Both the position numbers and the translations under genes were made by a program. Under the pieces are notes generated by a model, which ran no database searches, was not told where the DNA came from, and saw only the letters and a list, made by a program, of their open reading frames with translations. DNA of 63,988 nt, the filler included, from Stramenopiles sp. TOSAG23-6 (Eukaryota), in the NCBI GenBank assembly GCA_900128565.1. It is 7 parts of 7 records of this genome, joined end to end, with 100 filler letters (N's around TTAATTAATTAA, not from the genome) between each part and the next. Parts side by side here need not be neighbours in the genome. Positions count along the whole stretch, not along the records: positions 9,401 to 18,670 come from LT636385.1; positions 18,771 to 28,001 come from LT636386.1; positions 28,102 to 37,318 come from LT636387.1; positions 37,419 to 46,632 come from LT636388.1; positions 46,733 to 55,938 come from LT636389.1; positions 56,039 to 63,988 come from LT636492.1; 1 more part is not named here. The stretch is one strand, 5' to 3'. This document shows positions 5,831 through 63,988 of the stretch, one piece after another. Positions within the stretch are counted from its first letter, which is position 1, and the number at the start of each line of letters is the position of its first letter.

Positions 5831-5834
5831 TTCT

Positions 5835-8656: not shown

Positions 8657-8713
8657 AATACTATTTAGTATTAAAAAAAAGTTTAGTAGATTATTTTATT
8701 ATATGTCTTCAAC

Positions 8714-9400: not shown

Positions 9401-9452
9401 GTACCTAACAAATTTTAGTTTTTTTTTTTTGAAATATTTTTTCACAATACTT

Positions 9453-10130
9453 GTATGTGTTTCACTAATATTAGGTTCACTTGTAATAGGTTTGAGTCGA
9501 TTAATTGATAGAAGGCATCATTGGTGGAACATGTACATTTTCATGATAAATTTTTTACCTACATTTGTTTTCATAGAAAATTCCGTACCTAACGAAATGT
9601 TTCGTTTTTAATATTTTTTCACAATATATTCTTATGGGTTTTATACTGGGTTATCTAACCTCAACAGTAGCTTATTTTCAGTACTGGCCATCTCCTTTCT
9701 CCAAGTTATCTCATTCTCCTAGTGCAATGTTGGAGCAAGAAGGAGATCTAGAAAATGTCGTTAACAGTAATGTACGTTTTCATCATTCGTTTTTTACCAA
9801 TTTCGAATTTATTTTTTTTATACAAAATTTTGTACCTGACGATTTTTTTTTGTAAAAAAAAAAAATATTTTTTTCACCCAACATGTGGGAGGATTTACTC
9901 TCATTTATTTACAAAGTAATGGAAACCCGGGGGATAGACTACAAAAACGTTTCTATATGGCAAATGTAAAGAGTGATTTATATGTATGTTTTCCATCATG
10001 AGAGAATTTCAAATTTTTTATATTATGAAATTTTGTACGTAACGATTTTTTTTTTTGAAATATATTTTCATAGAATTTGATGACTTGGAGACTGATGAAA
10101 AAAAACAATTTGCAATGGACAATTAGTTAG
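9453..10130 (+). CDS. 3' part of a PAP2/lipid phosphate phosphatase; family introns 9533-9629, 9772-9884 and from 9984 (3' end uncertain)
   Basis: Spliced GLSRLIDRRHHWWN|ILMGFILG matches the PAP2 C3 motif SRxxxxxHxxxD. Confidence 0.7.
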
Positions 10131-10337
10131 GGTTAAACAATTAAATAATGCCACGAGTTAAAGTAAAATATTCCTATTTTATTGAGAATAATTGAAACAG
10201 AAAATATTAAAACAAAGATATTATATATATTTTTTTTTTCTCATGATAAAATTTGACATTGAAAAATAGTAGTGTTAGTGTTAGTGTTATATTATAAATC
10301 TTTGTCTTTTCTCATGATAAAATATCTTTGTCTTTTC

Positions 10338-10807
10338 TCATGATAAAATTTGACATTGAGCATGAATAATCACAAGCAAATTCAGCATGGCATTTATTTA
10401 ACCGGTAATATCTGATATAATTTGTATTTTCTGTTTGTACATTTTGTTTTGTTGGTTTTGTTGTATGAATTTGCTTAGGGTTAGGGTTTTTTCTTTCTAG
10501 TGTTTTCGTAGAAAAATATTTACTTTCAACAATCAGACAGTGAAGGTCTGTTGGACATGTTTTTTGTAAAAATATTTCAAAAAAAAAAAACTTAAATTTG
10601 TTAGGTACGAAATTTCGTACGAAAAAAAAATCAAATTTGAAAAAAAAAATAAAACATACAAGTCATTTCTTTAAGGCCTCCTTCATCGGCAAAAACAGTC
10701 ATTGTAAATCGTTTTGGTGAAAATACAGATAGTATATGCTTCAACATTGGTTGATAATTACGAATCTGTATATTTGTTTCAAAACTCGCATAACTACAAT
10801 GCGACTC
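10338..10807 (-). CDS. 3' part of S-adenosylmethionine decarboxylase; family intron 10557-10659
   Basis: ESHCSYASFETN...LSVFSPKRFTMTVF matches the eukaryotic AdoMetDC (HITPE)xxxSYASFETN...F.P..F motif. Confidence 0.7.
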
Positions 10808-10918
10808 ATGTATTTTGGAAAAATATTTCAAAAAAAAATCTAAAAACATTTGTTAGGTACAAAATTTCGTACGAAAAAAAAATTTCGATTTTTTTGTAAA
10901 AAAAAAAATAAAACATAC

Positions 10919-11765
10919 ATATGCCACCGTTCATTACAAAATGTAAATTGTTTTTAAATCGACCTATCTGCGAAGGTCTAAATGTAAAAAGGATATTTCT
11001 ACTTTGTAGAGGTTGCAATATGCCACGTTGCAGCTGACTCTGGAAATGGGCAACTTTATTCAAAGAGAATGCTATGGCTAAATTTTCAGAACTGTTTTTT
11101 ACTGTAATTTCGATATCACGACGATCACCAACAGAGCATTCCCCAAATCGTAAAAGTCTTTGCGATAATTCGACATTTGGCATTGTAGCTGTTCCATTTA
11201 ATTCCAATGGCATTTGTTGTTTTGTATCGCTACAAATAATTTCAAGTTGTTGAGAAAATGTTTTTGTACTAGAAAATTGTATGTATTTTGGAAAAATATT
11301 TAAAAAAAAAATTAAAATTTGTTAGGTACAAAATTTTTATAAAAAAAATATTTAGATAAAAAATTGAAAAAAAAAAACATACATATTTTGAGTGTTTCCC
11401 CCGCCCTTTTTTTTCATCACACTACTAAACCCCTTTGTAACGGGTGATAATTGAGGTTTAAAAGTACATGTTATTTTTAATTTTGAATATGGTTTTATCA
11501 TCCCTTCACGTGGCGAAACGGTTAATGCATGTATTTTGGAAAAATATTTCAAAAAAAAACTTAAAAAAATCGTTAGGTACAAAATTTCCTATAAAAAAAA
11601 ATTTTCGATTTTTTTGTAAAAAAAAAAAATAAAACATACATCGGGTAATTTTGGTGGTGCATTACTCTCATCATCAAACGTCGTTTCATCACTTTTTTCA
11701 TCTGCTTTTTTTATAACAAAAGAAATCGTTTGTGGACCATTATTGACCAACAATGACGTCACAGT
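10919..11765 (-). CDS. Internal fragment of a CFAP47/Hydin-like ASH (Ig-like) ciliary protein; family introns 11281-11382, 11529-11639
   Basis: LVNNGPQTISF, LTVSPREGMIKPYS...FKP, LRFGECSVGDRRDIEITVKN, GILQPLQS...FTFRPSQIG. Exons join in frame. Confidence 0.6.
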
Positions 11766-11883
11766 ACGTATTGTGAAAAAATATTTCAAAAAAAAATTCT
11801 AAAAAATTTGTTAGGTACGAAATTTCGTATAAAAAAAATTTAAAAAAAAAAAAAAAAAAATTAGAAATTCATATAAAACATAC

Positions 11884-12569
11884 ATTCTTTTTGCGGAGAC
11901 TTTTGCTAATGTAGTCGTATAGTGTGAAAGTGTGAAATTAAAAAAAAAATAAAATCGTTAGATACAAAATGTACTATGAAAAAAAATTGAAAAAAAAATT
12001 AGTTTTTTTTTTTTTTTTTTTCTTAGGTACAAAATTTCGTATAAAAAAAAAAAATTAAAATTCATGATAAAAACGTATGCCTTCGCTCGTCGTTTACGTA
12101 ATTGGTCCCAACTATTATTTTTAGAGCCATGATATTGATCTTTTCTCTCGCCAACACGATGAAGAAGATGAAGAAGTTCCTTGTTTCCTTGATTTAAAAT
12201 TTTTCTCTGAGCTCTTCCCTTAATTTCTTTATACAAATCATTGGAATGCAAAGCGCGACTTCGTTTTACGACTTTTTCATGTTCTCGCACTTCATGAGAC
12301 ACATAAGATTTCGCATTCATAATGAGTTCATCATGCATGGCGTGATGTGCCTTTATCCACATTCTCTGGGTCATATGAAGTTTAGGTCCTTTCAGGTCTA
12401 TTTCTTTATGAATCATTTTTGGTTTTCTTTGAGACTTTTGGACAGATCGAAGCATCGCCATCAAGTATTTTTCACCAGATTCTGGTTGTATTTGATTATC
12501 AAGTGTATCCCGTTCCGACACACGTCCCATGATTTCATCCCTTAGACTTTCGGTAGACCTTCGAGCCAT
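11884..12569 (-). CDS. Hypothetical basic protein (weak CFAP97/KIAA1430-like); family intron 11915-12078
   Basis: ORF 11958..12569 runs into an ATACGT-type family insert; RKILNQGNKELLHLLHRV segment. Confidence 0.4.
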
Positions 12570-12837
12570 TTTTAATGAATAAATACAAACGAATACAACG
12601 TAGTTTTTCTAAATACAAATATGTCGTTGTAGTAGAGACAAAAATAATTTTGTATTCTTTGACTTGATCGATTTTCAGAATGAAACTGTCAAAAAAAAAA
12701 AAAAAATTCCATAATTTTGGGTCCCGGGTATCTTTTTTTAGGTAATCATTTTCCTTCGAAGCGAAGCAAAAGCCGCAAGCGCGAAAAAAAAGACGCAAGT
12801 GTTCTCCCTCACTCATTTGTGTATTTCATGTTTTGAG

Positions 12838-14910
12838 ATGGTGATGATGGATAATAATGAATCAGATGGTGAAGTATCTGGTATAATTTACCCTCCACCT
12901 GATGTCCGTGCGATTGTTGATAAAACAGCGCAATTTGTAGCCAGAAATGGAGTTCAATTTGAGTCCCGCATCGCTGCCAGCGAGTCGGGTAACCTCAAGT
13001 TTGCTTTTCTTCAGAAAAATGATCCATATCATGCATATTACAAATTCATGGTTGCAGGTGGTGGCGATAAAACAAAGGAAAAGTCAAATGCCGATGGAGA
13101 TGACAAAAACAATGATACCACCGAAAAATCCTCAAATGAAATACCTCAAAGTTCCACAACGGATGACACGAATGGTCCGGAGAGTTCATCAGTATCAACT
13201 ACTATAGGTACAGTGCTACAGAAGAAAGCAACTTCAAAGTCATGGGGTCGATATTTAGATGCTAGCATGTCCAATGTTCCACCTGAAGAACCAGAACTTA
13301 TATTTGATCCCATCCACTCGGATCCTGAGTTAGTGGACGTCATAAAATTAGTCGCTCAACATGTTGCTGTCAGTGGAAGGCGATTTTTAGATCAAGTTGT
13401 TGTCAGAGAGAGGTTAAACACAGAATTTAACTTTTTAAAAACGGATCATAAATTATTTCCTTATTTCACGTCCTTAATTAAAGCATATGAGAGGTGTGTC
13501 GTTCCAACGCAAGATTTATTGGACTCTCTAAAAAATGATGTGACAAGTATTGACCCAATTCTTCGAAGGTCCGTTCACATTATGGATTATACTCAAAGAA
13601 CAAGAGATCAAAAAAAAATAGATGAAGAAGAAGCACGAGCTGAGAGGATTATGTATTTATCTACAGATTGGCATGATTTTGTTGTTGTTGAGACAATAAC
13701 GTTTGACGAATCCGATGAATATGATGATGTCGATGATTCGACTACCCATGACAATTCGAATCAATCGAATACAAAGTCTAATCTCAACTCAAGCCATAGT
13801 GATAGAACGTCTCGTCAAACGTCAGCAATGGATATCGATGACCGTGGGCAAAAATATTCTGAACAGATGGGCAGTCAAAGTCAATCCAATTCAGAAAATA
13901 CACGAAAAAAACGAAAATTAAACGTTCAAACTGATTATAAGCCAAAAGTTCAAAGTGCTACTGTCGAAGAACAACATTTTGTAGATAAAACAGGACGACG
14001 TATTGCCGTTGACCAATCAGAAGAAGTCATGCGGATAGAGTTACTCGATCCGACATGGCGTGAACAGCGTCAGCGCTCAATAGCTAAACAAAAAATTACT
14101 GCATTTGCAACAAACAACCAAATTGCTTCGAATTTACGTCGATTACAAACAAAACGTGGAGAAGCTGAAAGTTTGAACAAAGACGACGAATCTTCATCAA
14201 AAAATCTTGGTGACAAACTTGCTGAAATTAAAGGGTATGATCCAATGGATACATCAGAAGCAGCTAATGATGATGATGATGATGAGAAAATTAATTCTGT
14301 AATGAATAGCCTAGGTGGTGTTGTTCAATCCAATTCATCAAACCCTAACCCTAACCTCAGGAAAAGTCATGCCATGAGTCAATCCATTTTGCCTCCTCCT
14401 CCAATGACTCACTTGAATACTACCAATGATACAATTGATCATAAGATTATACCAAATATGCCAAAAACAATACAACAAAATCAAACAATTCAACCACCAC
14501 CACCATCATCACAAAGTGTACCTGTTGAACCGAAAAGTATGCCTCCTCCTCAAGAAAAATGGAAAGATCCAAATGCATTGATTTCCGCAGTTGAATGGCA
14601 AAAAACTCATACGGACAAAATTTTAATTAAAATTCAAGTTCCTATGGATGAAAATGGAAGTATGTATCCTACACAATGGGGATTGAATGGTCAAGTGATT
14701 GAAATCAATGCAAATCTTTCAGAAACTATTAAACAAATTAAATTGAAATTGTCTACACATTTGGGGAAAATGCCATGTAACAAGCAACAATTAAAATCTG
14801 TTCAATTTGGATTTCTTAGAGATAATTTAAGTCTTTCACATTATAATTTTACTGGGACAATAGACCTTGTGTTGAAACCAAAGGTAAGAGGCAAACGTGG
14901 AAAAAGATAG
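12838..14910 (+). CDS. SF3A1: Splicing factor 3A subunit 1 (Prp21/SAP114), U2 snRNP
   Basis: SURP1 GIIYPPPDVRAIVDKTAQFVARNG, SURP2 VIKLVAQHVAVSG, DWHDFVVVETI, MRIELLDPTWREQ, a Pro-rich region and a C-terminal ubiquitin-like domain. Confidence 0.95.
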   Translation: MVMMDNNESDGEVSGIIYPPPDVRAIVDKTAQFVARNGVQFESRIAASESGNLKFAFLQKNDPYHAYYKFMVAGGGDKTKEKSNADGDDKNNDTTEKSSNEIPQSSTTDDTNGPESSSVSTTIGTVLQKKATSKSWGRYLDASMSNVPPEEPELIFDPIHSDPELVDVIKLVAQHVAVSGRRFLDQVVVRERLNTEFNFLKTDHKLFPYFTSLIKAYERCVVPTQDLLDSLKNDVTSIDPILRRSVHIMDYTQRTRDQKKIDEEEARAERIMYLSTDWHDFVVVETITFDESDEYDDVDDSTTHDNSNQSNTKSNLNSSHSDRTSRQTSAMDIDDRGQKYSEQMGSQSQSNSENTRKKRKLNVQTDYKPKVQSATVEEQHFVDKTGRRIAVDQSEEVMRIELLDPTWREQRQRSIAKQKITAFATNNQIASNLRRLQTKRGEAESLNKDDESSSKNLGDKLAEIKGYDPMDTSEAANDDDDDEKINSVMNSLGGVVQSNSSNPNPNLRKSHAMSQSILPPPPMTHLNTTNDTIDHKIIPNMPKTIQQNQTIQPPPPSSQSVPVEPKSMPPPQEKWKDPNALISAVEWQKTHTDKILIKIQVPMDENGSMYPTQWGLNGQVIEINANLSETIKQIKLKLSTHLGKMPCNKQQLKSVQFGFLRDNLSLSHYNFTGTIDLVLKPKVRGKRGKR

Positions 14911-15630: not shown

Positions 15631-15910
15631 TGGCTAATTATTGTATATATAGTGTTGTTTATTGTATATAAATAGTATAAGGATTTCGTGTGTATGTGAT
15701 ATCGGTGTAAAAAGCACAAGTTTCTTAGTAGTATATAATTTAAACCAGAAATAATTGGAAAGTCGAAATCTCAAAATTGCGATTGGAAACAAAAAAAATA
15801 TGTATTTATTTTTTACCAAAAAATGTTTTTATTAAGATAAAAATTTCAATATTTTTTTTGTACCAAATTTTGTACCTAACAAAAAAAACATTTTTTTGAA
15901 TTATTTTCAG

Positions 15911-17730: not shown

Positions 17731-17765
<35 letters not shown>

Positions 17766-18490: not shown

Positions 18491-18770
18491 ATTCTGTTTT
18501 TGCTTACATTTTTATACCTAACATTTTTATTTTCAAAAAATAAAATAAATATATTTTAAACTGCATTAAAAATAAAATTTATTTTTCAAATTTCATTTTT
18601 TTTTAAATTTATTCCTACTAAAATAGTTTTGTTTTGCAATATCTTTCAAATGTGATGATTTTAATGGACCNNNNNNNNNNNNNNNNNNNNNNNNNNNNNN
18701 NNNNNNNNNNNNNNTTAATTAATTAANNNNNNNNNNNNNNNNNNNNNNNNNNNNNNNNNNNNNNNNNNNN

Positions 18771-24479: not shown

Positions 24480-24711
24480 TTCGCCTTCTTTCACAAATTG
24501 ATCCGATCGTCTACGGGCTTTCCTTAAAAAAATTGCGAAATTGAAAATGGACTGAATTCATTTCATCATCATCATTGATCACAGACAGGTTTGTGTAAAA
24601 TGTTTTTGTAACTATTTTTCGAAAACTTTCAGCCCAATTCCGTAGAGAAGGGCATACAATTGCTACCCTTTAACACATGCATTAATTTATTAAGGTAAAC
24701 TGACGCATAAG

Positions 24712-26476
24712 ATGAATCTTTCTTCTGCACCAATGGCAATCAATAATAATCGCCCTCCAGCGCTTCCTCCATTGAGCACCTTATTTCAGGGAGCTCCAGC
24801 TACCCCAGTTACACAAGGAATGCTTGGCGTAGGAGAGCGCGACAGTTTCTCGAGTACATACGAATTAGGACGAATTATAGGGCGTGGTAGCGCGTCTCTT
24901 GTTCGACAAGCTCGACATAGAGTCACTGGCCAAATATGTGCCGTGAAACATATTAATATGTCATCTATCCATTATAAAGATCGACAGCAGCTTCGAGTAG
25001 AGGTGACTATTTTAAAGAATGCGCGTCACCGAAACATTGTTTCACTATTAGATTTGTACGAGACGAGAGATGAGCTTATTCTTGTTATGGAATACGCATT
25101 AGGGGGTGAACTCTTTGACCGAATTGTTGCAAAGGGAAAATATTCTGAGCACGAAGCAAGTATTGTAATGACAAAACTTTTAAAGGCTGTTGAATATCTT
25201 CATAACAGAAATATTGTTCATCGTGATATAAAACCAGAAAATATTTTACTTGCGTCTCCTGAAAGTGACACAGATATCAAGGTCTCTGATTTCGGTATTG
25301 CAAAAATTTTAAAAGGCCATGTTTCCACGATTAATGCACCTACAGGTGTTGCAGCTGGATTTGGTTTAGTTTCGGATAATTCTAATAATAGTAGTGTTTC
25401 TCGGTCAAGAACTTCGAGACATCCAGTAGCTGCGTCACTTCGGCCACAGACTTCTTTACGAGAAATTTCTAGTTTATCTCAGAATAGCTCACTTAGACAA
25501 CCATCTAGTTTCCGTGGTTCTTCGAGTTTACTTACCAGTTGTCTTCGGAATGATCCACAAGTTAGACCAACTCGTGCATTTTCTACATGCGGGACCGATT
25601 GTTATATGTACGTTTGTATTGTGAATTTCATTTTTTTTTTGCTTTTTTTGTACCAAATTTCATACCTAAAACATTTTTTATTGACTGATTTCGAATTTGA
25701 CATATCTTCTCAAAATTCATGGCCCCTGAAGTATTAGGCGTACAGCCTTCAAAAACGAATCGAAATGAAGGGTATCATGCTCCAGTGGATATGTGGAGTA
25801 TGTATGTTTTATTTTTTTTTGTATGAATTTTTTTTCATACGAAATTTTTTACCTAACAAACTTTATAGATTTTTTTTTTGAAATATTTTTTCAAAATACA
25901 TTGGTGTAGTTATGTATATTTTACTCAGTGGCGAGCCGCCATTTGAAAATGATTTTTATGTACGTTTCAAAATTGAATGTATTTTTTTTGTACAATGAAA
26001 ATTTTGTATGAAAATTTTTTGTACAATGAAAATTTTGTATTAAAATTTTGTACCTAACAAAGCATTTTTATAAAACAAATATATATGTTTTCACTATACA
26101 TGCTCCGAGTCTTTCTGTGAATAATAGTTTGAATCTTAATCAGAATGATGCAGTTTGTGGCAGTGCAACTTTTGCTGCAGGCAATTGGTTTGCTGGTCAG
26201 CGCAATAGAAGTGACTTTTCAGTTCGTTTTAATGACGTCTACTGGGGTACAATATCTGCAGAAGCTAAAGATTTAATTTGCTGCCTCTTGACAAAAAACC
26301 CAGAACGAAGGATTACTGCTTCGCAAGCATTGAAACACCCTTGGTTAAAAGGCGAAACACATTCTTTAGGAACAGGGGATACATTGCCTGAATCACATAG
26401 TCTTCAACTGCGACGATATATTTCTCAAAGAAAAGAAAGTATGAGTGGATGCTTTGGTATGGATGTTGATACTTAA
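24712..26476 (+). CDS. CAMK-group Ser/Thr kinase; family introns 25608-25720, 25802-25901, 25960-26101
   Basis: [20 protein letters not shown]. Splicing restores [29 protein letters not shown] and ISAEAKDLI...[12 protein letters not shown]. Confidence 0.92.
25802..25901 (+). mobile_element. Representative copy of the Introner-like GT-AT intron family
   Basis: AT|GTATGTTTT...TTTCATACGAAATTTTTTACCTAAC...TTTTGAAATATTTTTTCAAAATAC-AT|. Removal gives the kinase motif DMWSIG. Confidence 0.85.
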
Positions 26477-26720
26477 CTATTTTGTAGAAATAAAAGATTT
26501 TGTACACCACAAAAGATTGTTTTTTGTTTTCATTTTTTATTCAAAGATGGATTTATCATTTTTTTTATTCGCCAAAAGCAATATAACAATGTATTTATAG
26601 CTATAATATAGTCACTTACACTTTGCTATAGAAAAAAACACCTATGTGGAAGAAAGATTTCAGCGGGTCTTCAGGTACTCAATTTAGCATTCGAATTTGC
26701 TGAGTGCTACCTTGAAAGAT

Positions 26721-26939: not shown

Positions 26940-27026
26940 ACGTATCGTGAAAAAATATTTCAAAAAAAAATTCGTTAGGTACGAAATTTCGTACGAAAAA
27001 AAATTAGAAATTCATATAAAACGCAC

Positions 27027-27636: not shown

Positions 27637-28175
27637 GTTTACTTAATACAATAACAAATGATACCACAAAGACGATAAATTATTCTAAAGTAATACAAAA
27701 CGAAACAAATGTATACGTATATCCCTAACTATTGTGTCACCAATGCGGATGTAATAGCTTTTTTGTAAGAAGTAAAAAAATAACAAAAGTTCTTTTTTAG
27801 AGGCCAATAATAATCCAGAGAGACCTGTCATAAAAAAAAAAAAAAAATGGAAGTCAAAATTTCTGTCAAGATTTCGTGTCGTCATCATCGTGATTGATTG
27901 CACATGGTGTTGTGGGATCTCACGTACTTTCCAACAACACCTTGTGTAAAAACACCTTGTGTAAAAACACCTTGTGTAAAAACACCATGTATTTCACCAA
28001 ANNNNNNNNNNNNNNNNNNNNNNNNNNNNNNNNNNNNNNNNNNNNTTAATTAATTAANNNNNNNNNNNNNNNNNNNNNNNNNNNNNNNNNNNNNNNNNNN
28101 NAATTTCTTTTTTTTTTCGTAGTAAATGTTGTACCTAACCAGTTTTTTTTTCATAAATATTTTTTCACAATACTT

Positions 28176-29695: not shown

Positions 29696-29735
29696 ATTAT
29701 ACTATAAAAAATCAAAATTCGATTCATTTTTATTT

Positions 29736-31707: not shown

Positions 31708-31952
31708 ATTGATTTAGCAGAAATGAGTGCGTAAATGAGATTAGATTCTTTGATCATGGAGAGGATTTAGCTTTTTGTTGTATTTGTTGTAACGGTCACA
31801 TTCATCGATGGGGGACCAGGTAACACAACAACAAAAGTGCTGTCATTTTCATTTTTTCAAAAACATCAATTTAATATTTTTTGACTCATTTCATTTGATA
31901 TATTTGGTGACAGAGACAAAGACTTTCATTTCCATCCTCTTCATTTAATAAT

Positions 31953-32577: not shown

Positions 32578-32815
32578 AAGTAAGTTGTAATGTTTGAATT
32601 GTATCATAATGAGTGCCACATGGCACCAGTACAATAAAAAACTGAATCTATCAAAGTGAAATTGTGGAAAATATTTTTTTGTAAAAAAATCGTTAGGTAC
32701 AAAATTCCGTACGAAAAAAAACTTAAATTTGAAATTAATTGTGAAAACTCAAAAAAAACTCACGAAAACATTCTGAAAAACAATTCGAATACATTTATTG
32801 AATGTAAAAAAAAAC

Positions 32816-32962: not shown

Positions 32963-32980
32963 ATGAAACCCTAGCCCTAA

Positions 32981-46632: not shown

Positions 46633-46804
46633 NNNNNNNNNNNNNNNNNNNNNNNNNNNNNNNNNNNNNNNNNNNNTTAATTAATTAANNNNNNNNNNNN
46701 NNNNNNNNNNNNNNNNNNNNNNNNNNNNNNNNTTTTTTTTTTTATAAAAATTTTGTACCTAACAAATTTTCAAAAAAAAATTGAAATATTTTTCCAAAAT
46801 ACGT

Positions 46805-47426
46805 TATCATATTGTCTCAGTGTGTCAGGATAATATATTGAGATGTTATTCTGGTGATGAACTTCGACAAATTGGCGGTCATTCAAAAAAAATTGTACGT
46901 GTTCACTTTTCACCATTAAGTTCAAAGTTGTATCACTATATATGAATTTCAAAGGCAATTTTAAATTTTGTATATAGATATTTTTAAATTTTGTACCTAA
47001 CGAATTTTTTTGAACCAAAAAAACAAAAAAAACAAAAAATATTTTTCACAAAATATGTGAAACCGTTTTATGCACCACGACATGATTGTCGAACAGGGAG
47101 ATGGTTGACAAAGTTCCAAGCCCGTTGGGATCCACAATCTCCTGATTGTTTTATTATTGGAAGTATGAGTCAACCAATACGTTTTCATCATGAATTTTTT
47201 TTTTTTTTTTGTAGTAATTTTTGTACCTAACAAAAAAAAACAATTTTTCAAATATTTTTTCTCAGTGTCTAGGTGTGTTGAAATTTTCAATGTTCGATGT
47301 AAACAAAAGCAAATGCGTATTCGAGATGACTACGTCGCATCTGTTCAATCACTTACTGAATATCATTCTTCTAGAAATATATTAGCGACAGCTAATTCAT
47401 CTGGTCGTGTTTATATATGGAAGTAA
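46805..47426 (+). CDS. 3' part of WD40 protein, WDR76/Cmr1-like; family introns 46895-47056, 47177-47270
   Basis: HDCRTGRWLTKFQARWDP...IGSMSQP|RCVEIF...LATANSSGRVYIW. Confidence 0.8.
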
Positions 47427-48428: not shown

Positions 48429-49154
48429 CAGTGGGGAAAAAATCAGAATCACTCTTAATTAATTCACATTACTTTGTATCATTTTATGCATTATTTTATT
48501 AATAAATGTTGACACAAACCTGCTTCAGTATTTCCTTTCAAATCAAATCAAATCACATACGACGTACGTTTTTTAAGGACTAATTTCAAATTGTTTTTGT
48601 ACCAAATTCCGTACCTAACAAAACAACGAATCCAATTCTAAAATTTGTAGATCCATGCGGTTGTTGTTTGTTCTTTTGTGTTTCTCCGCTGCGCGCACTC
48701 AGCTCTGCTGAAAACGCAATTTTCGTCTGGGTATTGTAGATTACATTTATTGTCGCGCCCGCTAAAGTGATTTGTTGTGTGCCCAGTTTACGGCACCAAA
48801 TTAGAATATCGTGGTTTTGTTATCAATAACTGACCGATAATTTAGATTACACTTTTGTACACAGACTCACGGCATCATTCGCGGCTTAATTTGGTAAGGG
48901 CTCAGGGATAAAAGTACCGCGCAAAGCGCGTGCTAAAAAGTAGCTGGCTTAGACTTTATAAGTCTACGCACATACAGAATTCCCTAAAGAAAACTTCCAC
49001 AAAGTCTTGTTACTTTTGTTGGACGGGTTTCATACCAGCCGTTGAATAGTTTTCTGCTTTACCCCAATCCACGAAAATATTACTCCAACCTTCTTCTGAC
49101 TTCCGAGAGGAAAGTTCGTCAATTATTGCGAAAAGTACTGCCCCCTTTCCAGCT

Positions 49155-51981
49155 ATGGTTCAACCAAGAAAAGTTAGCACAGGAATGGCTGTACCACCTC
49201 TTCCTCCTCGGCCACCTCTCCCAACTGCTCCTGCTCCGAGAGTTGAAACAATTGAAACAATTCAACCTCCATTACCAGGAGCACCTCTTCCTCTTGCCCC
49301 ACCGGCACCAGGAACACCGACAAGAAAGCACGTATCTGCTTATAATTCTGGAAGTAAATCCGTTGGTTCAAATAAAAATGAGGCAACTGTTTCTGAAGTA
49401 TCGCCACTTCCTCCGTTGCCACCTCCTGAGTCGGGCTCTATAACCAACGCGACGGATCTGTTGTCACTCCCTCCGTTACCGCCTCCAGAGTCTGGATCTG
49501 TAACCAATGTGTCGGAACAGGTACCAACACCCAGAAAACGTCAGAGAGATAAAAATGGACAATCAAAAGAAGGTTCAAAGAATTCTCAAAAAAGAAATGG
49601 ATATTCGAATTCAGCGAAACGCCGTCGTCGTTTTCAATCGAGAAAAGGTTCTAGAAGATCTTTGGATAAAGCGAAATCTGATATCGAAGTAGGGTTCTTA
49701 CAACGCAAAACTCGCATCGGATTACGTGACGCAAAAGATGCATATAAAATAATTGAACAGTGTGGCGAAGGTACATATGGGTACGTGGTATTTAGAATAA
49801 TATTATTGCTTTTAACCCATCAACGTGCTCAATTCTCTGTTTCTCGTTTTTGCATTTTCAGTCATTTTCTTCATTTGATATGTTGAATATCTGAATGCTT
49901 TTCTTCATTGTCACTTGATGGATTACATCATTTGATACGTTGACTAGCTTGATTGTTTTTTTTGGCTTCACTTTGATGTGTTAGCTTTGATTTTTTGAGT
50001 TTTATTTGTGTCAGTGTAATGCTTTAGAATGCATTGTACAATCTATCTTATATGTAGACTTTTTTGTCTATTTTCCCTTTCCCGTGTCATTTTAATGTTT
50101 CCCTTTATTATTATATAATTATATTATGAGTAGTTACTTACGAGCATAATTTCGCCCTCCCCACCTCACCTAACTCTATATCCAAACCAAACCGAACAAA
50201 ACCAATACTTCCGCACTTAAATTACTATTACTATTCCGAAAAAATCAAATTCTACTTTATATTCAACAATTTGCAATTTGCATGTTTAATCATTATCTAT
50301 TCGACTGTCCCATCCATTACTTATAAAATGTTCGACATCGATTTCTATTGATATGATACACTAAACAGACAAGTATACAAAGCAAAATGTAAAATTACAG
50401 GTCAAATTGTTGCAATGAAAAAGATTCGCATGGAAAATGAAAAAGAAGGAGTAAGTAGTACATAAATAATTGTTTTATACAAGTGAAATTTTGACAATCT
50501 ACCAATCTACGCATAGAGAAACGTTTCGTCGGTAAAATCGCATGTTGTATCAAGTTTGTACCCTAATCGTTTATTGATTATAATGATTGTGTTAGTTGGA
50601 ATTATTGTGCGAATAAGTTTCCAAGCCTATTTTATTATACTTTTATAGTAATTGGCATTTTCACAGTAGGGTTAAATAGGCACAGCAGTCGATCTTACTC
50701 AGTACTAGTGTTGGTTATTCTCCGTCTCTTTCCTTTAGNGAGAGAAATGACTTCTAGTGGTGTAAACTGAGAATCGCGATGAAACGCACATCATGTGATA
50801 GTATTAGGGTTGTAACTTAGTGTGTTCGATGCAGTGAAACTATTGCAATTCTTATTGGCTATATCTAGTCCAAAGCTGTCAAACATGGGCTTTGATTTTT
50901 GTTTTTTTGTGTTTTTTTTGTGTTTTTTTCTTATTTTATTTAAAAAAAAAGCAAGATCTTATCATCTTCTGCTTATCATTAATATTCCCTCTTAGTATAG
51001 TTTCCAATAACTGCTTTACGCGAAATAAAAATTTTGAAGAGGATTTCAAGGCACCCCTCTATTGTCCGATTGATTGAAATTGTAACAACAAAAGCAACCG
51101 ATCATAACCGAAATCGAGGCGCAGTGTATATGGTCTTTGAGTATATGGATCACGATCTNACAGGTCTTTTAGATACCCCTGGAGTTGTTTTGTCGAAGGC
51201 ACACATAAAATGTTACATGAGGCAGTTACTAGAAGGCTTGTTATACATTCACAAACATGGTATTTTGCATCGTGATATTAAAGGTGCAAATCTTTTGTTG
51301 AATAATAATGGTGAACTTAAAATTGCTGATTGGGGTTTGAGTAGAGTTTTTCTAGGTAGAGAAAAAAAGTACACGACACGTGTTGCAACCTTATGGTATC
51401 GAGCACCGGAACTTTTACTTGGTACAACTTCCTATGGTGCTGAAATTGATATTTGGTCTGTTGGATGTATTTTTGCAGAGTTATTGTATCGTAAGCCAAT
51501 TTTGCCTGGGCGTGTTGAGATGGATCAAATTAAGCTAATTTGGAATCTTTGTGGNACTCCAACACAAAAGAATTTTCCAAATCATGATAGATTGCCTTGG
51601 TTTCATCTGTGTCGTCCTGAGAAGACTCGTGCTTCAGTGTTGAAGAAACGATTTGCTGGATTTTCAAATCTTGAACTTGATCTTGTGAGTAAAATGCTCA
51701 CCTTGGACCCAGCGAAACGAATTACTGCCGCAAAGGCTCTAGATCATGATTATTTTTGGTCAGGTTCCGGTGTCCCGAAACCTGAGGATTTGCCAAAGTT
51801 TAAAGTGAAATCAGCGCATGAATTTGAAGCGAAACAGAGACGAAATGCTGCAAAAAAAAGACAAGAAAATAACGTAAAACGAGGTCATGTACTACCTAAG
51901 CATGCTGGTAATAGAATGCATCATTCGCGAAAGAGTGGTTCAAATTTTCGCCCGCCACCTAGGCCTGGTTTACCCCCATGA
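49155..51981 (+). CDS. Transcriptional CDK (CDK9/CDK12/CDKC type) with Pro-rich N-terminus; canonical GT-AG introns 49781-50368 and 50451-51000
   Basis: Spliced GEGTYG|QVYKA...[50 protein letters not shown]. Confidence 0.92.
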
Positions 51982-53173: not shown

Positions 53174-54990
53174 ATGAAAATGGATTGTAGTATACATGGT
53201 GTACCTGTTGGTGCCGTTCTCACATCAAGATCTAGTATGCGTGTCGTTCGAAATTGTTTGCATAGTTTAGGATCAACATTAACGGTGACTCCGTACAGAT
53301 ACTCTGCTGGTGACACAACAAAAGAATTTGCAGTTCACGTCAAAAATAGTGAGGTAACACTACTGCTCAATGATGCAGAAGTCACTGGTGTTTTCGACAA
53401 AATTCCTCCTAAATTATCATCATTATTAAAACAAGGCCTAATTCATTGGGTCAATGGTTTGCGTATAGGATCTAAGAGCTGTAGAGGTTGCGAAAATGTT
53501 GTGCCAAACACTCTAAGTTGGTCACTATCTGGTGGTGAACGAAGACGTCGAGCAAGTGGATTAGCTGCTAAAATAGCCTATATGGCTAGTTGTACGGCAG
53601 TTACTGTTGTCTCGAATATGGATAATCAAGTTGTAGATACTAACACGAAGTCGGTAGGAGTTTTAGATACAGAAAAAAAAAGTTGCTTTCGTTATATTGA
53701 ACTATTCGCAGGAATAGGAGGCTTTCGAATTGCTATGGATAAAATTGGAGGACGTTGTGTGTTTGCGAGTGAAATATGTAGAGAGGCACGCCAAACATAC
53801 CATGCTAACTTTGGGCCAACACCAATCACATTTGCTGGTGACATAACTGAAGTGGAAGCATCATCTATACCGGAATATGATATACTAACTGGTGGTTTTC
53901 CATGTCAAAGTTTTAGTCATGCAGGTGAACAGAAAGGATTTCGTGATTCTCGAGGACAACTCTTTTTTGAGGTCTGTAGATTACTTCACCATGGTAAACC
54001 TAAAGCCTTCATATTAGAAAATGTTCCTGCTTTGGTTGAGATAGATGATGGTGCCGTTTTGTGTACAATATTAACTGAACTAAAAAATGCAGGATATTTT
54101 GTGAAATGGAAAATTCTTGACCACAAAGCGTATGTTCCACAGAGGCGATTTCGCGTTTTTTTTATTGGAGTTCGGACTGATTTGATGAAAACGGAAAAAG
54201 ATTTGGAATCATTTCAATGGCCTGAAGGACCTACATGTTCAACGCCACCAATTTTGAGAGATGTCCTTGAAGACTTCGTAGATGAATCAACCCCTAAGAA
54301 ATATAAAATAAATGATATCATCTCTGATAGGGAGTGTAACCTTAAGTCTACACAGAGTCATAATGAAAAAACATTCGATAGATTCAAATTAACAAAAGAC
54401 CAATGGAATAATATTAAGGAACGAAACANGAAAAGACACAAAAATATTTCTAGTGATACAAACAATATAGATTTAGATTGGCGTGTTGTCGATGTAAATG
54501 GTATTGCGAATACATTAAGGGGAAGATATAGAAAAAGTTGGCAAGTACAAAGTCAATTTGTTCGAGTTCAACAAAAATCATGTACGTTTTCATTGTGAAT
54601 TTCAAATTTATTAGTTTTTTTCATACGAAATTTCGTACCTAACGATTTTTTTTTTTTTTAAATTTTCACAACACATCATCCAATCAATCAGATAATGATT
54701 TAAATAATGATTCCTCAGAAGTACCCATTCGATTTTTTACTCCAAGGGAATGTGCACGAATTCAAGGCTTTCCCGATTCCTTTATTCTCGATGCCTGTAC
54801 AAGGAATAGTCACGGGAAAATTAAGGGATCTCATAGAAAGAGAAAACGGAAACAAAATATAAAAGAAGAAATAGCTAGGGTTAGGGTTGCAAATGGGCTT
54901 AATCGGATATATCATCAAATTGGAAATTCAGTTTGTCCTCCTCTAGTCAGTGCAATTGCTGAGTCTCTTGTAGACATACTGAAACTATAA
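53174..54990 (+). CDS. DNA (cytosine-5) methyltransferase, Dcm/bacterial-like; family intron 54582-54676
   Basis: Motifs I ELFAGIGG, IV GGFPCQSFS, VI ENV and VIII PQRRFRVF; after splicing, IX RFFTPRECARIQGFP and X YHQIGNSVCPP. Confidence 0.92.
54582..54676 (+). mobile_element. Introner-like family copy in the DNA methyltransferase gene
   Basis: AT|GTACGTTTT...ATACGAAATTTCGTACCTAAC...CACAACAC-AT|. Removal restores the frame to motifs IX and X. Confidence 0.85.
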
Positions 54991-55299: not shown

Positions 55300-55770
55300 T
55301 TACTCACTAATGGTGCCCCATAATACTTCTGAAGCCAAATCTGTAATACTTGAACCTACATGTATTGTGAAAAAAAAATGTAGTCAAAATTTGTTACGTA
55401 CGGAATTTCGTACGAAAAAAAGATAAATTTGAAATTCAATTTTGAAATTCAATTTTGAAAACGTACTAACTTATGGCTATTTTTCGTGAGGTGAATGCCA
55501 TCCGTTCCATTTTCTACATCCTTTACATCATCTAATACAAGGCATTTGCAAATGTATTTTGGAAAAATATTTCAAAAAAATTCTAAAAAATTTGTTAGGT
55601 ACAAAATTTCGTACGAAAAAAAAATCGATTTTTTCGTTAAAAAAAAAAATAAAACATACATATTAGCATCTGTACTAAATTCATCCAGGGTATACACAAT
55701 CTCTCCAGTACCCGGTACTGTAGTTTGAATATGACAATATCCATAAAATGTACCTGACCACAAGCATTGT
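55300..55770 (-). CDS. 3' part of SGNH/GDSL-like hydrolase; family introns 55360-55466, 55552-55659; probable 1-nt homopolymer frameshift
   Basis: DGIHLT followed, after a frame change in an A-run, by NSHKL|VGSSI, resembling SGNH block V. Confidence 0.45.
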
Positions 55771-56038
55771 CACGAAATATTACAATTTTTATTTTGTTAG
55801 GTGTACAATGTTTCATACAAAATACAAATTTTAATTCAAATTCAAATTAAAATTCAAATTTTAATTCAAATTAAAATTCAAAAAAAAAAAAAAAAAAAAA
55901 AAAAATGTTTAGGAAAAAATTTTGGAAAAAAAAAAAAANNNNNNNNNNNNNNNNNNNNNNNNNNNNNNNNNNNNNNNNNNNNTTAATTAATTAANNNNNN
56001 NNNNNNNNNNNNNNNNNNNNNNNNNNNNNNNNNNNNNN

Positions 56039-60473: not shown

Positions 60474-61415
60474 ATGACAGAAAAATGCTTTTTATCTGAA
60501 TCATCTGTAGAACGTATCTATGGAGAACTCGAACGTTTAGATGCGTCATCTTCTGTCAGCAGCATTGCGTACCTAACACTATATAAAATATTTTTATCAA
60601 ACATCACTTATTTGAATCATTTCTAAAACTAAAATATTGAAGCATTTTGAAATATTACACAAAATATAGACAACTTGCAACGGACTTAAACAGACCTAAC
60701 TATCAATATGATATGCGTGATAGCATTTATGTAGACTATACCTATTACAATATAGGGTTTTGCAGAGAATCACAATTTTCAATAAAAAAAGCAATGACAT
60801 TGCTTAATTTACTAGAAAGAGTATTTTTACACGCCATTGAAACAGAATTTGGAGATATACAGACAACTTATGAAGTATTACAAAAAGGGATACTCGATCA
60901 TGTAGCAAAAACAGAGTCAAACAAGTCTATTGCTGAGAGCGAAACAACTGAACAACACGAAAAACACGAAAAACACGAAAGTGTTTCGTTTTCAGTGAGT
61001 GAAATCAAAAATCTCACAGAGTATTTTGCTAATACATTTGCACGATACTTCCCAGCATATAAGCAAGTGTTTACAAAACGAAGATATGAAACACAATCTG
61101 TTTTATCAGTTTCTTGTACATTGTTTTCAGCATTCAATTATTTCTTTTTTTTTACGCGTAAAAAAAAATTCCATACCTAACATTTGTTTTTTTGAAATAT
61201 TTTTTCACAATATATGCGAAACTCCTTTACGCCAACCATGTTTGATGGAAGGTCGACTAAAAGGTGAAGGAAAACCTGATGGAACAAATTTGGTAAAAAC
61301 AGTTGAAAAGGTTAAAAAAGATATTGAGCCAAATGTGAGCACTATTGATAATGTTAGCACTATTGATGATGTCAACACTCAAGAAGAAAATACAGAAGAT
61401 GTGAATTCGTCGTAA
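60474..61415 (+). CDS. Flagellar CLAMP/C1a-32 (CFAP119-like) protein; canonical intron 60569-60642, family intron 61116-61215
   Basis: YNIGFCRESQFSIKK...FSVSEIKNLTEYFANTFARYFPAYKQVF. Confidence 0.65.
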
Positions 61416-61629
61416 AAAAAAGTTTGTTAGGTACAAAATTGTCTACGAAAAAATAATTTTGAAAAAAATCATAAAAACATTTTAAAAACATTTTTGGTAA
61501 TCCTGGCCCTTTCCAAAATACATAGTTAAAAACTTTAACCGTGTGTATATTATATAAATAAACAACAGAATAATTACATTTACTTTATTTTGCGTGCATG
61601 TGCCAAAAAATGATTCATTAGAGTTAGAA

Positions 61630-62394
61630 TTATTGCAAAATACAAATAGAATTTTGCTGTTGGTTTAGCTCACTAGAAGGGTTAGTGTTACAATTTTTTT
61701 TTTCCCACTCGATATCAGCTTCAAATGCTTGTAGAGATTTATTTACATCATTATTACATTCATCTAAATAAACTTTTGCTTCCTTTAAAGATAGTTTCCC
61801 ACCCGTTCGTTGAATGAGATCCATTTGTTTAGAATATTTTGGATTTTTCTCAGTTTTCGTTTTTTTTTGTTGTAGACGAAATAATGCCGGTAGAAAAATC
61901 TTTTTACCCACATATCCATGTAATTCAAAGTCAGCAGTAAAAAAGTTCATTTTCCGNAGTTTATTCTGAGAAATTGAATGTTGCAAAGCAATCCCAGTGA
62001 TAGTGTCCCCTTTTTTTACAACATACTCTACTTGATTATTTTGTTTTTCTGACTGTTCGAATTCCGTTTTTTTTAATAGCGGTTGATTGAGAACAGAATT
62101 TTCTTCAGAAGGAACTAAGGATATAGCTGCTACTTTTTCTTTAACATGAATAGGATCTCTAGAATCAATGTCAGATGTTTTTCTGTGAGTAAGACTATTG
62201 GGAGCCGCAGCACATATTAATTCGTTTTCAATTTGTTCGTTTAACTCTTTAGCTAATGAAGCAACCGATTCTGGACCTTCCCTAAAAGCCTTTTCAAAGT
62301 TGGGCTTCTCTAACGAGGATAAACGATGTGCTACAGGCTTAGTGGGGATCAAAACTCCATCTTTTGTCACGAACTGCTTCTTTGCGAGAATCAT
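61630..62394 (-). CDS. LysM-domain protein
   Basis: YVVKKGDTITGIALQHSIS...RKMN; EAKVYLDECNNDVNKSL...D..WE. Confidence 0.75.
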   Translation of the reverse strand: MILAKKQFVTKDGVLIPTKPVAHRLSSLEKPNFEKAFREGPESVASLAKELNEQIENELICAAAPNSLTHRKTSDIDSRDPIHVKEKVAAISLVPSEENSVLNQPLLKKTEFEQSEKQNNQVEYVVKKGDTITGIALQHSISQNKXRKMNFFTADFELHGYVGKKIFLPALFRLQQKKTKTEKNPKYSKQMDLIQRTGGKLSLKEAKVYLDECNNDVNKSLQAFEADIEWEKKNCNTNPSSELNQQQNSICILQ

Positions 62395-62595
62395 GAATTT
62401 ATTATTGTAATTTGAAAACTGGTAAATATCGACACAAAAAGGAATCCGTTCCTAACCGGTTTAACAAACAGAACACAATGTCATCACTGATGATTGATTT
62501 TTGGCGGTCAAAAGCCGAAAGAAAAATGTCAAAATAATAATTGATCTGAGATCGTCTCTTAAGTGTTCCTCTCTCACTTTTAAATTTACATAAAT

Positions 62596-63941
62596 ATGAT
62601 TTCAAGATTATTAAAGTTACATGGGAGTTCATTACCTCATGGTATTGGACAATACCTCAAACGGTACAATAGAATACAGAGATTTTCATCTAGCACTCCG
62701 ATTAAATATGACGTTGTCATAGTGGGGGGTGGCATCATGTACTTTACATTTACTGAATTATGAATATACATTTATCACATATTTCTTGAAATCTTTACAG
62801 TTGTAGCTCATATATATAAATATGTTATTGATATTCAATTATATGTAGGGGTTCTTCATCTGCCTATCATCTTCAAAAGTTAAATCCAAACCTTCGTATT
62901 TGTGTAGTGGAACGCGATCTGACATACACTTCTGCATCGACACCGTTGTCTGTTGGTTCAATTCGGCAACAATTTTCTATCGAGGGAAATATTTTAATGT
63001 CAATGTATGGGGCGCGGTTTCTAAAAGACATTCATAAACACCTTTCTGTGGAGGGCGAGGAAGACGCAGACTGCGGATTTGTGGAAGGCGGCTATTTATT
63101 CCTTGCAAGTGATACGGGTGGTTCAGTATTAAAAACCAATTATAAATTGCAGACAAGTCTTGGCGCTGATGTAGAAATATTTTCTCCTCAAGAACTGAAA
63201 AAAAAATTTGGTTGGCTAAACGTTACAGATTTAGACAGTGCTGTTCTTGGAGTTCGAAATGAAGGATGGTTTGATCCTTGGTTACTTCTTGGAGCATTTA
63301 AAAAAAAAGCTATATCTCTTGGCGTCGATTATATAGCAGGCAATGTAGTAGGATTTGATATGTCACCTGTCAAAAACACTTCAAAAAAAGTGATACATTG
63401 TGTAAATGTTGAAAGTACAAAAAGTGAAAATACTTCTAGTCCGAAACAGATGATGTTGGAGGCAAATCATGTAATCAATGCAGCAGGACCTTGGGCTGCT
63501 GATATCATGGCTTTGACAGATGTTCAAAATTTTCCAGTTCAACCACGTAAACGTATGGTTTTCGTGTTACATTGTCCAAAAGGCCCTTCATGTACGTTTT
63601 CATCATGAATTTCAATTTTTTTTTTTTTTTTTTTTTCATAGTAAATTNNNNNNNNNNNNNNNNNNNNNNNNNNNNNNNNNNNNNNNNNNNNNNNNNNNNN
63701 NNNTTTTTTTTTTTTTTTTTTGGTATGAAATTTTGTACCTAACGATTTTTTTAAAACCAAAAAAAAAAAAATCACAATACAGTAGACTGTCCCTTGATCG
63801 TTGATCCTACAGGTTTTTATATACGAAGGGAAGGCTCTCACGGAAACTTTATTTGTGGTAAATCGCCAGATACTAATGATCCGAATACCTTTAGTCATGA
63901 AGTTGAACATGAATTTTTTGAAGAGAATATTTGGCCAGAAT
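62596..63941 (+). CDS. FOXRED1: FAD-dependent oxidoreductase FOXRED1, 3' truncated; canonical intron 62739-62848, family introns 63592-63782 and from 63942
   Basis: YDVVIVGGGIM|GSS, VVERD.TY..AST.LSVG.IRQQFS, GYLFLA, EGWFDPW, INAAGPW, PRKR.VFV.HCP. Confidence 0.88.
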
Positions 63942-63946
63942 GTACG

Positions 63947-63979
<33 letters not shown>

Positions 63980-63988
63980 TTTTTTTTT

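Follow-up and report, generated by a model that had tools for sequence, protein, structure and literature searches.

Can an intron family that keeps a standard 5' splice site and a branch-like box do without the AG at its 3' end? The question is raised by a window of 63,988 nucleotides (nt; filler included) from Stramenopiles sp. TOSAG23-6 (assembly GCA_900128565.1), the window being the whole stretch of DNA that was analysed, in which protein-coding genes are interrupted by short AT-rich inserts that mostly end in AT. The 3' AG is among the most constant signals of eukaryotic gene expression, and a genome whose introns mostly combine a textbook 5' site and branch box with an AT end would constitute a natural experiment on the second catalytic step. 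A first-pass annotation, made from the sequence alone, had counted about 40 similar inserts of 85-190 nt with a 5' GTAYGTTTT, a branch-like box and an end of the form ATAC-NN; a profile search recovers this family as 54 elements, with its motifs far above chance. Here we present the evidence that the inserts are excised exactly, together with a description of the family and an account of how it may be cut and how it may have spread.

The window consists of concatenated contigs, i.e., pieces of 9300, 9270, 9231, 9217, 9214 and 9206 nt in descending order and a last piece clipped at the window end. They are joined by six linkers of the form N44-TTAATTAATTAA-N44 (9301-9400, 18671-18770, 28002-28101, 37319-37418, 46633-46732 and 55939-56038). 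Because the pieces are separate contigs, distances and gene order across the linkers are meaningless.

Exact excision without a 3' AG

Introns were defined as running from the GT through the second nucleotide after the ATAC-type end. With the introns so defined, all of the 31 junctions in 12 gene models lie within one unbroken open reading frame (ORF), and four additional copies are frame-compatible. After removal, the ORFs measure 476 amino acids (aa) in the kinase, 559 aa in the LRR gene, 523 aa in the contig-5 gene with its seven introns and 386 aa in the ASH-domain gene. When all 3' boundaries were moved by -2/+1 as a control, the corresponding values fell to 45/43, 200/60, 141/138 and 184/182 aa. 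A listing of frame-compatible acceptors was uninformative, since the T-rich introns are open in several frames.

The kinase gene (24694-26478) carries three plus-strand introns of the GT..AT type, at 25608-25720, 25802-25901 and 25960-26101, the last with internal tandem modules. Removal of the first restores CYM/APE and removal of the second DMWS/IGV; the spliced protein aligns without gaps to six homologues across CGTDCYM/APEVL and VDMWS/IGVVMY, and the third intron is in frame and consistent with the homologue alignment. A database model of the kinase with other splice sites (P0002) is missing APEVLGVQ and SIGV and thus lacks two invariant kinase motifs; gene models for the group that assume GT-AG introns will be wrong. 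In P0001, which stems from an assembled public run, the kinase reading runs directly into intron 1, so this entry derives from unspliced sequence.

The LRR gene, on the minus strand, yields a spliced protein of 557 aa. P0121 (580 aa) and P0122 run collinear with it, and the alignment stays free of gaps across all three junctions, where the introns end in GG (intron 1, 31058-31152), AG (intron 2, 30806-30918) and GT (intron 3, 30541-30633, with GT/GT flanks). A representative search with the LRR exon gave only two matches, which were the ones used for the alignment; neither is a transcript of the same species. In the DNMT gene, exon 1 corresponds to positions 1-249 of the DNA_methylase hidden Markov model (HMM) and exon 2, read in the predicted frame, to positions 270-295, on either side of a plus-strand GT..AT intron (54582-54676). 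The claim of the first-pass annotation that removal restores conserved motifs is thus borne out by gap-free alignment for the kinase and the LRR gene, and by frame and Pfam coordinates for the DNMT. Regarding PAP2, the claim concerning motif C3 is weakly supported, the exon upstream of 9533-9629 giving a weak match to the C3 region (HMM 82-105, E 0.017). For the EF-hand gene it is the open frame that stands, the homologue search with the large exon of this gene having returned no matches.

The first-pass annotation had named the mapping of RNA as a check, and this was done with assembled contigs from four seawater metatranscriptome runs (X1-X4) over the N-free stretch 28646-37318. The 93 nt from 30541 to 30633 are skipped by an X1 contig of 446 nt (347 and 99 nt on the two sides) and by an X3 contig of 298 nt (139 and 159 nt). 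The skipped segment coincides exactly with the predicted intron, with a register ambiguity of 3 nt. None of the four registers (GT..GT, TG..CG, GT..AC and CG..TA) ends in AG, and an AG situated 12 nt into the downstream exon (TTGCAG) is not used in these contigs. Two other contig pieces stop at 32423 and 36488, respectively, and a third begins at 33768; these positions are the leftmost registers of the predicted introns 32427-32520 (flanks CAT/CAT), 36492-36600 (CAT/CAT) and 33582-33769 (GT/gt). Skips of 188-2,831 nt between different copies represent cross-mapping of other family members and were left out.

Curated sets comprised 28 copies at first and were enlarged to 33 for the tally of ends. 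Of these 33, 32 begin with GT and one with AT; the final dinucleotide is AT in 24, GT in three, AG in two, TT in two, GG in one and GA in one. This closely matches the earlier hand tally of 32 copies (AT 24, AG 2, TT 2, and GA, GG, GT and CT 1 each). The final base is T in 29/33 copies and the penultimate base A in 26/33, and a rule of 'AT in place of AG, with tolerance' fits the data as well as a rule of 'no requirement'. Taken together, the RNA junction, the 31 of 31 junctions in frame and the gap-free homologue alignments show that the inserts are excised at these boundaries from a standard GTAYGT 5' site, with no AG requirement at the cut, as had been proposed.

A dispersed repeat family and its host

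The branch-like box TACCTAAC occurs 45 times in the window compared with 1.27 expected, a number attained in none of 100 shuffles, and the 3' motif TTTTGAAATATTTTTC occurs 27 times with up to two mismatches compared with 1.21 expected. A profile built from 7 copies gave 47 matches, and one built from the 28 curated copies gave 59, which merged to the 54 elements. The consensus order is GTAYGTTTT, a spacer, TTTCGTACGAAATTTYGTACCTAAC, a T-rich spacer, GAAATATTTTTYCAMAATAC and 2 nt, in which GAAATATTTTTYCAMAATAC is a conserved 22-nt 3' module with the ATAC-type end. In the set of 28, the elements are AT-rich and measure 87-188 nt (25 of them 87-118 nt); a CCTRA box is present in 27, and in 26 of these its distance to the 3' end is 34-52 nt. 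The long copies 11915-12078, 25960-26101, 33582-33769 and 38024-38172 contain 2-3 tandem repeats of the module that precedes the branch box, a module that includes the near-perfect palindrome GTACGAAATTTCGTAC.

A copy and its closest counterpart, which sit in unrelated genes and on different contigs, share an identity of 0.69-0.91 over about 85-107 nt. Outside the three conserved boxes, the spacers form at least five subfamilies that recur across unrelated genes and contigs, e.g., ATTTTTTTTTTTACAAAAAAATCGAAATTT (copies 10918, 11639 and 55659), CATCATGAATTTCAA... (39285, 29120 and 54582) and ATATGAATTTCTAATT (11883, 27026 and 30633). Variants of the two ends are linked, GTATGTTTTATTTT occurring with CCAAAATAC and GTACGTTTTCAT with TCACAATAC; no base-pairing logic connects them, and the pattern is one that several master copies, each with its own descendants, would be predicted to leave. 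Of the 12 contig ends at linkers, six fall within family copies, and more N gaps lie inside copies, as expected for a high-copy repeat; repeats of this family fragment and mis-join assemblies. All three codon phases are used (phase 0, 10; phase 1, 7; phase 2, 10; 27 copies). Folding of six copies gave z-scores of -2.0, -1.65, -0.84, -0.82, -0.74 and +0.18, with end pairing of at most 4 bp in some of the folds; four of the six fold no better than shuffles, and no convincing shared stable stem joining the intron ends was found among them. A search of viral contigs with the 22-nt element pattern gave no matches, and a search of the window against Rfam gave no family matches.

Contigs placed on the stretch numbered 1,276 for X2, 1,156 for X3 and 1,358 for X4, most of them at 90-99% identity, and the many element contigs in this range indicate that many other copies exist in those samples. 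Summed contig depth was about 100-9,800 in bins with elements and 0-16 in bins with neither elements nor telomere-like repeats. In three of the four runs, the depth of element contigs exceeded that of exon contigs by factors of hundreds to thousands; this excess could arise if the copy number is very high, if the introns are stable after excision, or if related species also carry the family.

In addition to the copies given above, the PAP2 gene carries on the plus strand two in-frame GT..AT introns (9533-9629 and 9772-9884) and a third (9984-10078) that is GT..TT by positional homology and has an alternative AG 5 nt upstream, the two being inseparable by frame. On the minus strand, in-frame introns are found in the AdoMetDC gene fragment (10557-10659, GT..AT; the upstream exon corresponds to SAM_decarbox HMM 255-300), in the ASH-domain gene (11281-11382 and 11529-11639, both GT..AT, and 11766-11883, GT..GT) and at 11915-12078 (5' ATACGT, 3' ..ATAC-GA, branch module duplicated). 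The EF-hand gene, also on the minus strand, has three in-frame introns: 33272-33366 (GT..AG), 33430-33529 (GT..AT) and 33582-33769 (GT..AT, branch module duplicated, with the RNA piece starting at 33768). Further in-frame GT..AT introns lie on the plus strand at 29120-29225, 37609-37710, 38206-38304, 38489-38592, 38759-38870, 39285-39386, 39482-39571, 44016-44108, 44316-44409 and 61116-61215, and on the minus strand at 55360-55466 and 55552-55659; the plus-strand intron 38024-38172 (GT..TT, branch module duplicated) is likewise in frame. Four other plus-strand copies are 28345-28429 (GT..GA, with no clear TACCTAAC box, frame-compatible), 28529-28773 (one intron or two, with an internal assembly gap, ..ACAT-AT, frame-compatible), 32427-32520 (5' ATACGT, 3' ..TTTACAT, no register starting with GT; RNA piece end at 32423, frame-compatible) and 36492-36600 (GTACTT..GCAT; RNA piece end at 36488, open frames of 475 and 224 codons). 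A 5' ATACGT in place of GTACGT (G1 to A) is shared by 11915-12078, 32427-32520 and 47177-47270, all of which are still in open frames.

Copies cut by contig ends are represented on the plus strand by 3' parts at 9401-9452 and 28102-28175 (both ..ATAC-TT), 37419-37470 (..ATAC-AT) and 46733-46804 (..ATAC-GT) and by a 5' part at 37235-37318. On the minus strand, 3' parts adjoin an assembly gap (46352-46392) and a contig end (46591-46631), and a plus-strand copy with an internal assembly gap ends in ..ATAC-AG (63592-63782). Members with less certain boundaries on the plus strand are 46895-47056 (GTACGTG...CACAAAAT-AT, boundaries putative), 47177-47270 (3' end CAG at 47265 or, by homology, CT at 47270, both frame-compatible), a putative family-like copy ending in TTTTCAG (15802-15910) and a family-like copy of the form GTACGTTTT..GTACCTAAC.. 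ending in TTGTAG, which probably lies in an untranslated region (UTR; 48564-48650). On the minus strand, a degenerate copy with 5' GAATGT follows the stop codon of the EF-hand gene (32657-32773), and an intron with the family-like 3' end ..CAATGC-TT has lost its 5' end at a contig join (55762-55938). Another degenerate copy (61407-61525) has as its 5' terminus ATGTATTTTGGAAA (61508-61521), the perfect 14-nt reverse complement of the usual family 3' terminus; to judge from its sequence, this terminus may be what remains of an ancestral element bounded by perfect inverted termini of 14 nt.

The minus-strand copy 10808-10918 stands apart. The exon upstream of it matches an ASH/HYDIN-type Ig domain (E 1e-8) and the one downstream the C-terminal third of AdoMetDC (HMM 255-300, E 7.6e-12); the frame break and the domains of different proteins indicate that two genes were joined within the repeat, and the copy is probably a repeat-induced chimeric assembly. 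Its candidacy as a true GT..AC intron was dropped, given that the Pfam domains on either side come from different proteins.

The first-pass annotation had placed the family at 9401-63988 and all copies in sense orientation. The range proved too narrow, as two degenerate minus-strand copies lie outside it (5833-5928 and 6040-6119, the latter with its 5' GT lost), both outside any ORF, between two plus-strand ORFs, and opposite in strand to both neighbouring genes. As for orientation, all of the 35 copies with a place in ORF models (31 junctions and four others) are in sense, a count that does not extend to about 10 degenerate or UTR-like copies.

A conventional intron of 550 nt, not a member of the family, was identified at 50451-51000 (plus strand) in a CDK-like kinase. 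It begins with GTAAGT, has a pyrimidine-rich tract and ends in TATAG, and its exons correspond to Pkinase HMM 15-39 and 44-263. The gene shares its contig with three family introns, and this coexistence indicates that AG-type splicing has been retained, not replaced. Other GTRAGT donors found by scanning the window are mostly chance sites inside ORFs, and only 50451-51000 was accepted. A second AG-ended intron may lie just upstream of 50451 (...ACTAAACAG, about 50378).

The base composition is AT-rich (GC 0.28-0.37 across the window), and long ORFs for eukaryotic proteins are closely spaced. Pfam matches include U-box/ARM, PRP21/SF3a120, two protein kinases, DNMT, PPR, RCC1, SNARE and LRR, among others. 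The PRP21/SF3a120 splicing-factor gene (12742-14910, plus strand) encodes two SURP modules and the PRP21 domain in one unbroken ORF. The first kinase exon is 100% identical to a protein that is named with 'MAST3' in one source, and its best named relatives are oomycete CAMK kinases; this sequence evidence points to a MAST-3-like uncultured marine stramenopile, which is taken as the host. The telomere-like motif AACCCTAACCCTAA occurs 11 times compared with 0.01 expected (at 10475, 14341, 32967, 33979, 34180, 34198, 37813, 54875, 59987, 60260 and 60266). The occurrences are interstitial, often close to gene ends and in some cases within ORFs, and the motif may be a telobox-like regulatory one. 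RNA contig depth is very high at 34156-34445, a region of AACCCTAACCCTAA.

Mode of excision and of spread

The combined explanation that fits best, and which we consider probable, is an introner-type non-autonomous mobile family that is excised as introns of the GT..AT type. A high-copy introner-like element would have colonised the protein-coding genes of a marine stramenopile, each copy supplying its own GTAYGT 5' splice site, TACCTAAC branch-like box and GAAATATTTTTYCAMAATAC 3' module. It would have spread as a DNA element that duplicates a 2-bp target, usually AT, the flanking 2-nt direct repeat being the probable target-site duplication (TSD). Excision would take the element together with one copy of the repeat and so restore the original reading frame exactly; the excised piece would read GT...AT in roughly three copies out of four, the others giving GT...GT, TT, GG, GA or AG. 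The duplicated bases would in this way become the 3' end of the intron, as in Fritillaria, where exonic TAC precedes the intron (PMC11282704).

The major (U2-type) spliceosome would be the cutter, since the GTAYGT 5' site suits recognition by U1/U6 and the CTAAC box, 34-52 nt from the end, recognition by U2, and the U12 consensus and spacing are not matched. The distance from the 3' module or the branch point would presumably fix the cut, A being preferred at -2 and T at -1. A more far-reaching proposal is that the spliceosome gained a second 3'-site choice, by position from the 3' module or branch point and with AU (or GU, UU, GG, GA) in place of AG, and that this let a 2-bp-duplicating DNA transposon become the dominant intron class of the genome; we advance it tentatively, with a confidence slightly short of even. 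In the contigs, at least 35 family introns compare with one verified conventional intron. The interpretation given in the first-pass annotation is upheld in part: its AG-independent removal stands, an altered recognition of the 3' splice site and branching at CCTAAC are hypotheses, and the hallmarks of an introner or miniature inverted-repeat element, the flanking repeat and the coexisting GT-AG intron are added here.

Several observations weigh against this explanation. Regarding the transcripts, only one explicit RNA junction was found among the matches listed, a single study (P1) supplied the two contigs that show it, these are assembled contigs instead of raw reads, and the three contig ends at 32423, 36488 and 33768 count as indirect support; an RNA library may also hold DNA, so that an intron-less allele is conceivable. 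Regarding mobility, no transposase or autonomous copy was detected by Pfam in 36 ORFs or exons of the window, and the terminal inverted repeat is short (GTAT/ATAC, extending in one subfamily to 7 bp with a bulge). No orthologous empty site was found either: a metagenome scan with the kinase exon gave 80 loci, all at no more than 48% identity, among which there was no orthologue and no transcript of the same species. Regarding the duplication, the upstream dinucleotide is AT in 23/33 copies, and because upstream AT is so common, what looks like a duplication could stem from a preference for certain insertion sites or from a consensus in the 5' exon. Finally, the minus-strand copy 26940-27026 requires a cut 2 nt shorter (85 nt) for its frame unless the 5' site is read as GC (registers GT..AC, TG..CG and GC..GT); its sequence is that of a GT-flanked GTACG copy after a 2-nt loss, and the GT/GT repeat keeps the mRNA the same across registers.

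The flanking repeat itself can be counted: the upstream exon dinucleotide equals the last dinucleotide of the intron in 20/33 copies. In the first 28 copies the match is found in 19, compared with a shuffle mean of 15.9 (P about 0.016), a weak excess in which the matching pair is mostly AT; the one locus-specific GT/GT pair belongs to the RNA-confirmed copy 30541-30633. These figures bear on the main rival regarding propagation, according to which the family spread through RNA (reverse splicing, reverse transcription and recombination) and the flanking AT is a proto-splice-site preference. The sense orientation of all 35 copies placed in ORF models, the lack of a transposase among the window ORFs and exons by Pfam, and a flank match that is mostly the identical AT everywhere are what such a process would leave, and fungal introners have been so interpreted (PMC9860276). 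Nevertheless, selection against unspliceable antisense insertions explains the sense bias equally well, and the two copies outside ORFs that are antisense to both neighbours, the GT/GT flank, the short inverted-repeat termini and the one perfect 14-nt inverted terminus speak for a DNA element. We therefore regard RNA-mediated spread as unlikely, although it keeps more weight than any other alternative.

A second alternative accepts the same excision but reads it in the AT-AC register, /ATGTAYGT...ATAC/, with the downstream AT exonic. As a consequence of the flanking repeat, GT..AT, TG..CA and AT..AC yield the same mRNA in most copies (20/33). A at +1 and C at -1, as in AT-AC introns, form a known compatible terminal pair. 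Moreover, the ATAC end equals the final AT in conservation (in the 28 copies, A 27 and C 24, compared with A 23 and T 25), and the register is among those allowed for the G1-to-A copy 32427-32520. At the other end of the intron, on the contrary, GT is the most invariant dinucleotide (G 27, T 28), compared with A 20 and T 24 for the exonic AT in the same 28 copies, and the 13/33 copies with unequal flanks would begin with TT, GA, GC, TA or TC, with an intact GTAYGT 2 nt inside. The RNA-confirmed copy 30541-30633 would start with GTGTATGT. Both homologues have Leu at the junction of 30806-30918, which is the residue encoded in the GT..AG register, whereas the AT..AC register would encode Val; in three other copies with unequal flanks (31058-31152, 10557-10659 and 61116-61215) both registers encode the same residues. 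The evidence thus favours the GT register over AT..AC, and we judge the latter improbable.

A further alternative is removal by a minor-type (U12-like) spliceosome, a type with a known tolerance of non-AG 3' ends. There is a partial likeness, in that the 5' GTATGTTTT resembles the U12-type RTATCCTTT and CCTAAC resembles CCTTAAC, and U12-type introns have relaxed, varied 3' termini. These introns begin with RTATCCTT and carry the TCCTTAAC box roughly 10-20 nt from the 3' end. The family has G/T instead of CC at +5/+6, its branch box is farther from the 3' end (34-52 nt), and GTAYGT is a standard U1/U6 site, all of which makes a U12-like remover very unlikely.

Slightly less credible still are ordinary, non-mobile introns with unusually long and strict signals that include a non-AG 3' consensus. 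The three best-conserved blocks are indeed the 5' site, the branch region and the 3' end, and the family-like copies ending in CAG or TAG carry the same 5' and branch boxes. Such introns would not be expected to have spacers common to subfamilies in unrelated genes, whole-length identity of up to 0.91, 5' and 3' variants linked with no base-pairing logic, or contig breaks inside the copies, and the clear conventional intron of the window has different signals (GTAAGT, pyrimidine tract, TAG).

DNA removal instead of splicing (programmed elimination, as of ciliate internal eliminated sequences, or insert-free alleles) would account for a 2-nt repeat at the boundaries that is left behind in a single copy, and RNA contigs by themselves cannot tell it from RNA removal, but we consider it highly unlikely in view of the strict sense orientation, the 5' splice site, the branch box and the abundance of element sequence in RNA libraries (depth 100-9,800 compared with 0-16), nuclear dualism being, to our knowledge, not known in stramenopile flagellates.

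Comparison with known intron systems

Measured against a U2-type GT-AG intron, the family agrees with GTRNGT at the 5' end (32/33) and departs from YAG at the 3' end (AG in 2/33). AT-AC introns resemble most of the copies in that one register reads AT...AC; in the U12-type AT-AC class, the 5' and branch consensus and the short distance from branch to 3' end differ from those of the family.

Introners are transposon-derived intron families of Micromonas, Aureococcus, dinoflagellates and many marine protists (PMC9860276, PMC12130899). Like the present family, they consist of near-identical short AT-rich copies in unrelated genes, and they carry one splice site while the other is formed at the edge of the flanking duplication, so that mRNA length is restored (PMC9860276, PMC12130899). 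The duplication measures 3-9 bp in described introners compared with the putative 2 nt here (PMC9860276). The introners described in these sources, those of stramenopile algae included, use GY..AG, whereas AG is found in 2/33 copies of the present family. A 2025 survey, in which AG and AC were the accepted 3' sites, left out families whose splice sites were unfamiliar unless transcripts supported them (PMC12130899); surveys based on annotated introns would miss the present family.

Abundant non-AG introns have been described in Fritillaria (AG-AC and AG-AT), Amoebophrya, euglenids and diplonemids (PMC11282704, PMC13326754, PMC7789003). The nonconventional introns of euglenids share with the present family the non-AG ends, TSD-like boundary repeats and a suspected origin from miniature inverted-repeat transposable elements (MITEs); they are reported to have no GT and no polypyrimidine tract, to depend on a stem formed by pairing of their ends and to be released as circles (PMC11282704), whereas the 5' site and branch box of the present family look spliceosomal. 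In Amoebophrya, likewise a marine protist, repeated non-canonical introns with direct repeats at their boundaries are found. According to the account in PMC7789003, these elements have hairpin-forming terminal inverted repeats of 8-20 nt and direct repeats of 3-5 nt, their end dinucleotides are not fixed, and no U1 was detected; the present family differs in its fixed GT, its branch box and a terminal complementarity of 4-7 bp. Given the weak terminal pairing and the shuffle-like folds, a hairpin mechanism of the Amoebophrya or euglenid type is unsupported here.

A likeness is also seen to the MITE-derived introns of Fritillaria borealis, which are also abundant, lineage-specific and of transposon origin (PMC11282704, PMC13326754). 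Their 3' dinucleotide (AC or AT) copies the preceding exonic bases, as in 20/33 copies of the present family, and in both genomes rare conventional GT-AG introns persist alongside (PMC11282704). The introns of Fritillaria mostly start with AG, compared with GT in 32/33 copies here; Fritillaria is an animal with divergent U2AF paralogues (PMC11282704), and the present host is a stramenopile.

Neither the present family nor non-canonical introns in MAST-3 were found described in the full-text literature or in the MAST genome papers, supplements excluded. Introners and non-AG introns being already known, what we rate as new is an introner family that combines a canonical 5' site with a non-AG 3' site, in a new lineage. 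It would add an independent case to the idea, drawn from Fritillaria, Amoebophrya, dinoflagellates and euglenids, that transposon invasion goes together with a relaxed spliceosome (PMC11282704). If the proposal of a second 3'-site choice is true, the family would be an independent protist counterpart of the Fritillaria introns with a canonical 5' site, in which the recognition of the 3' splice site would be the single altered step.

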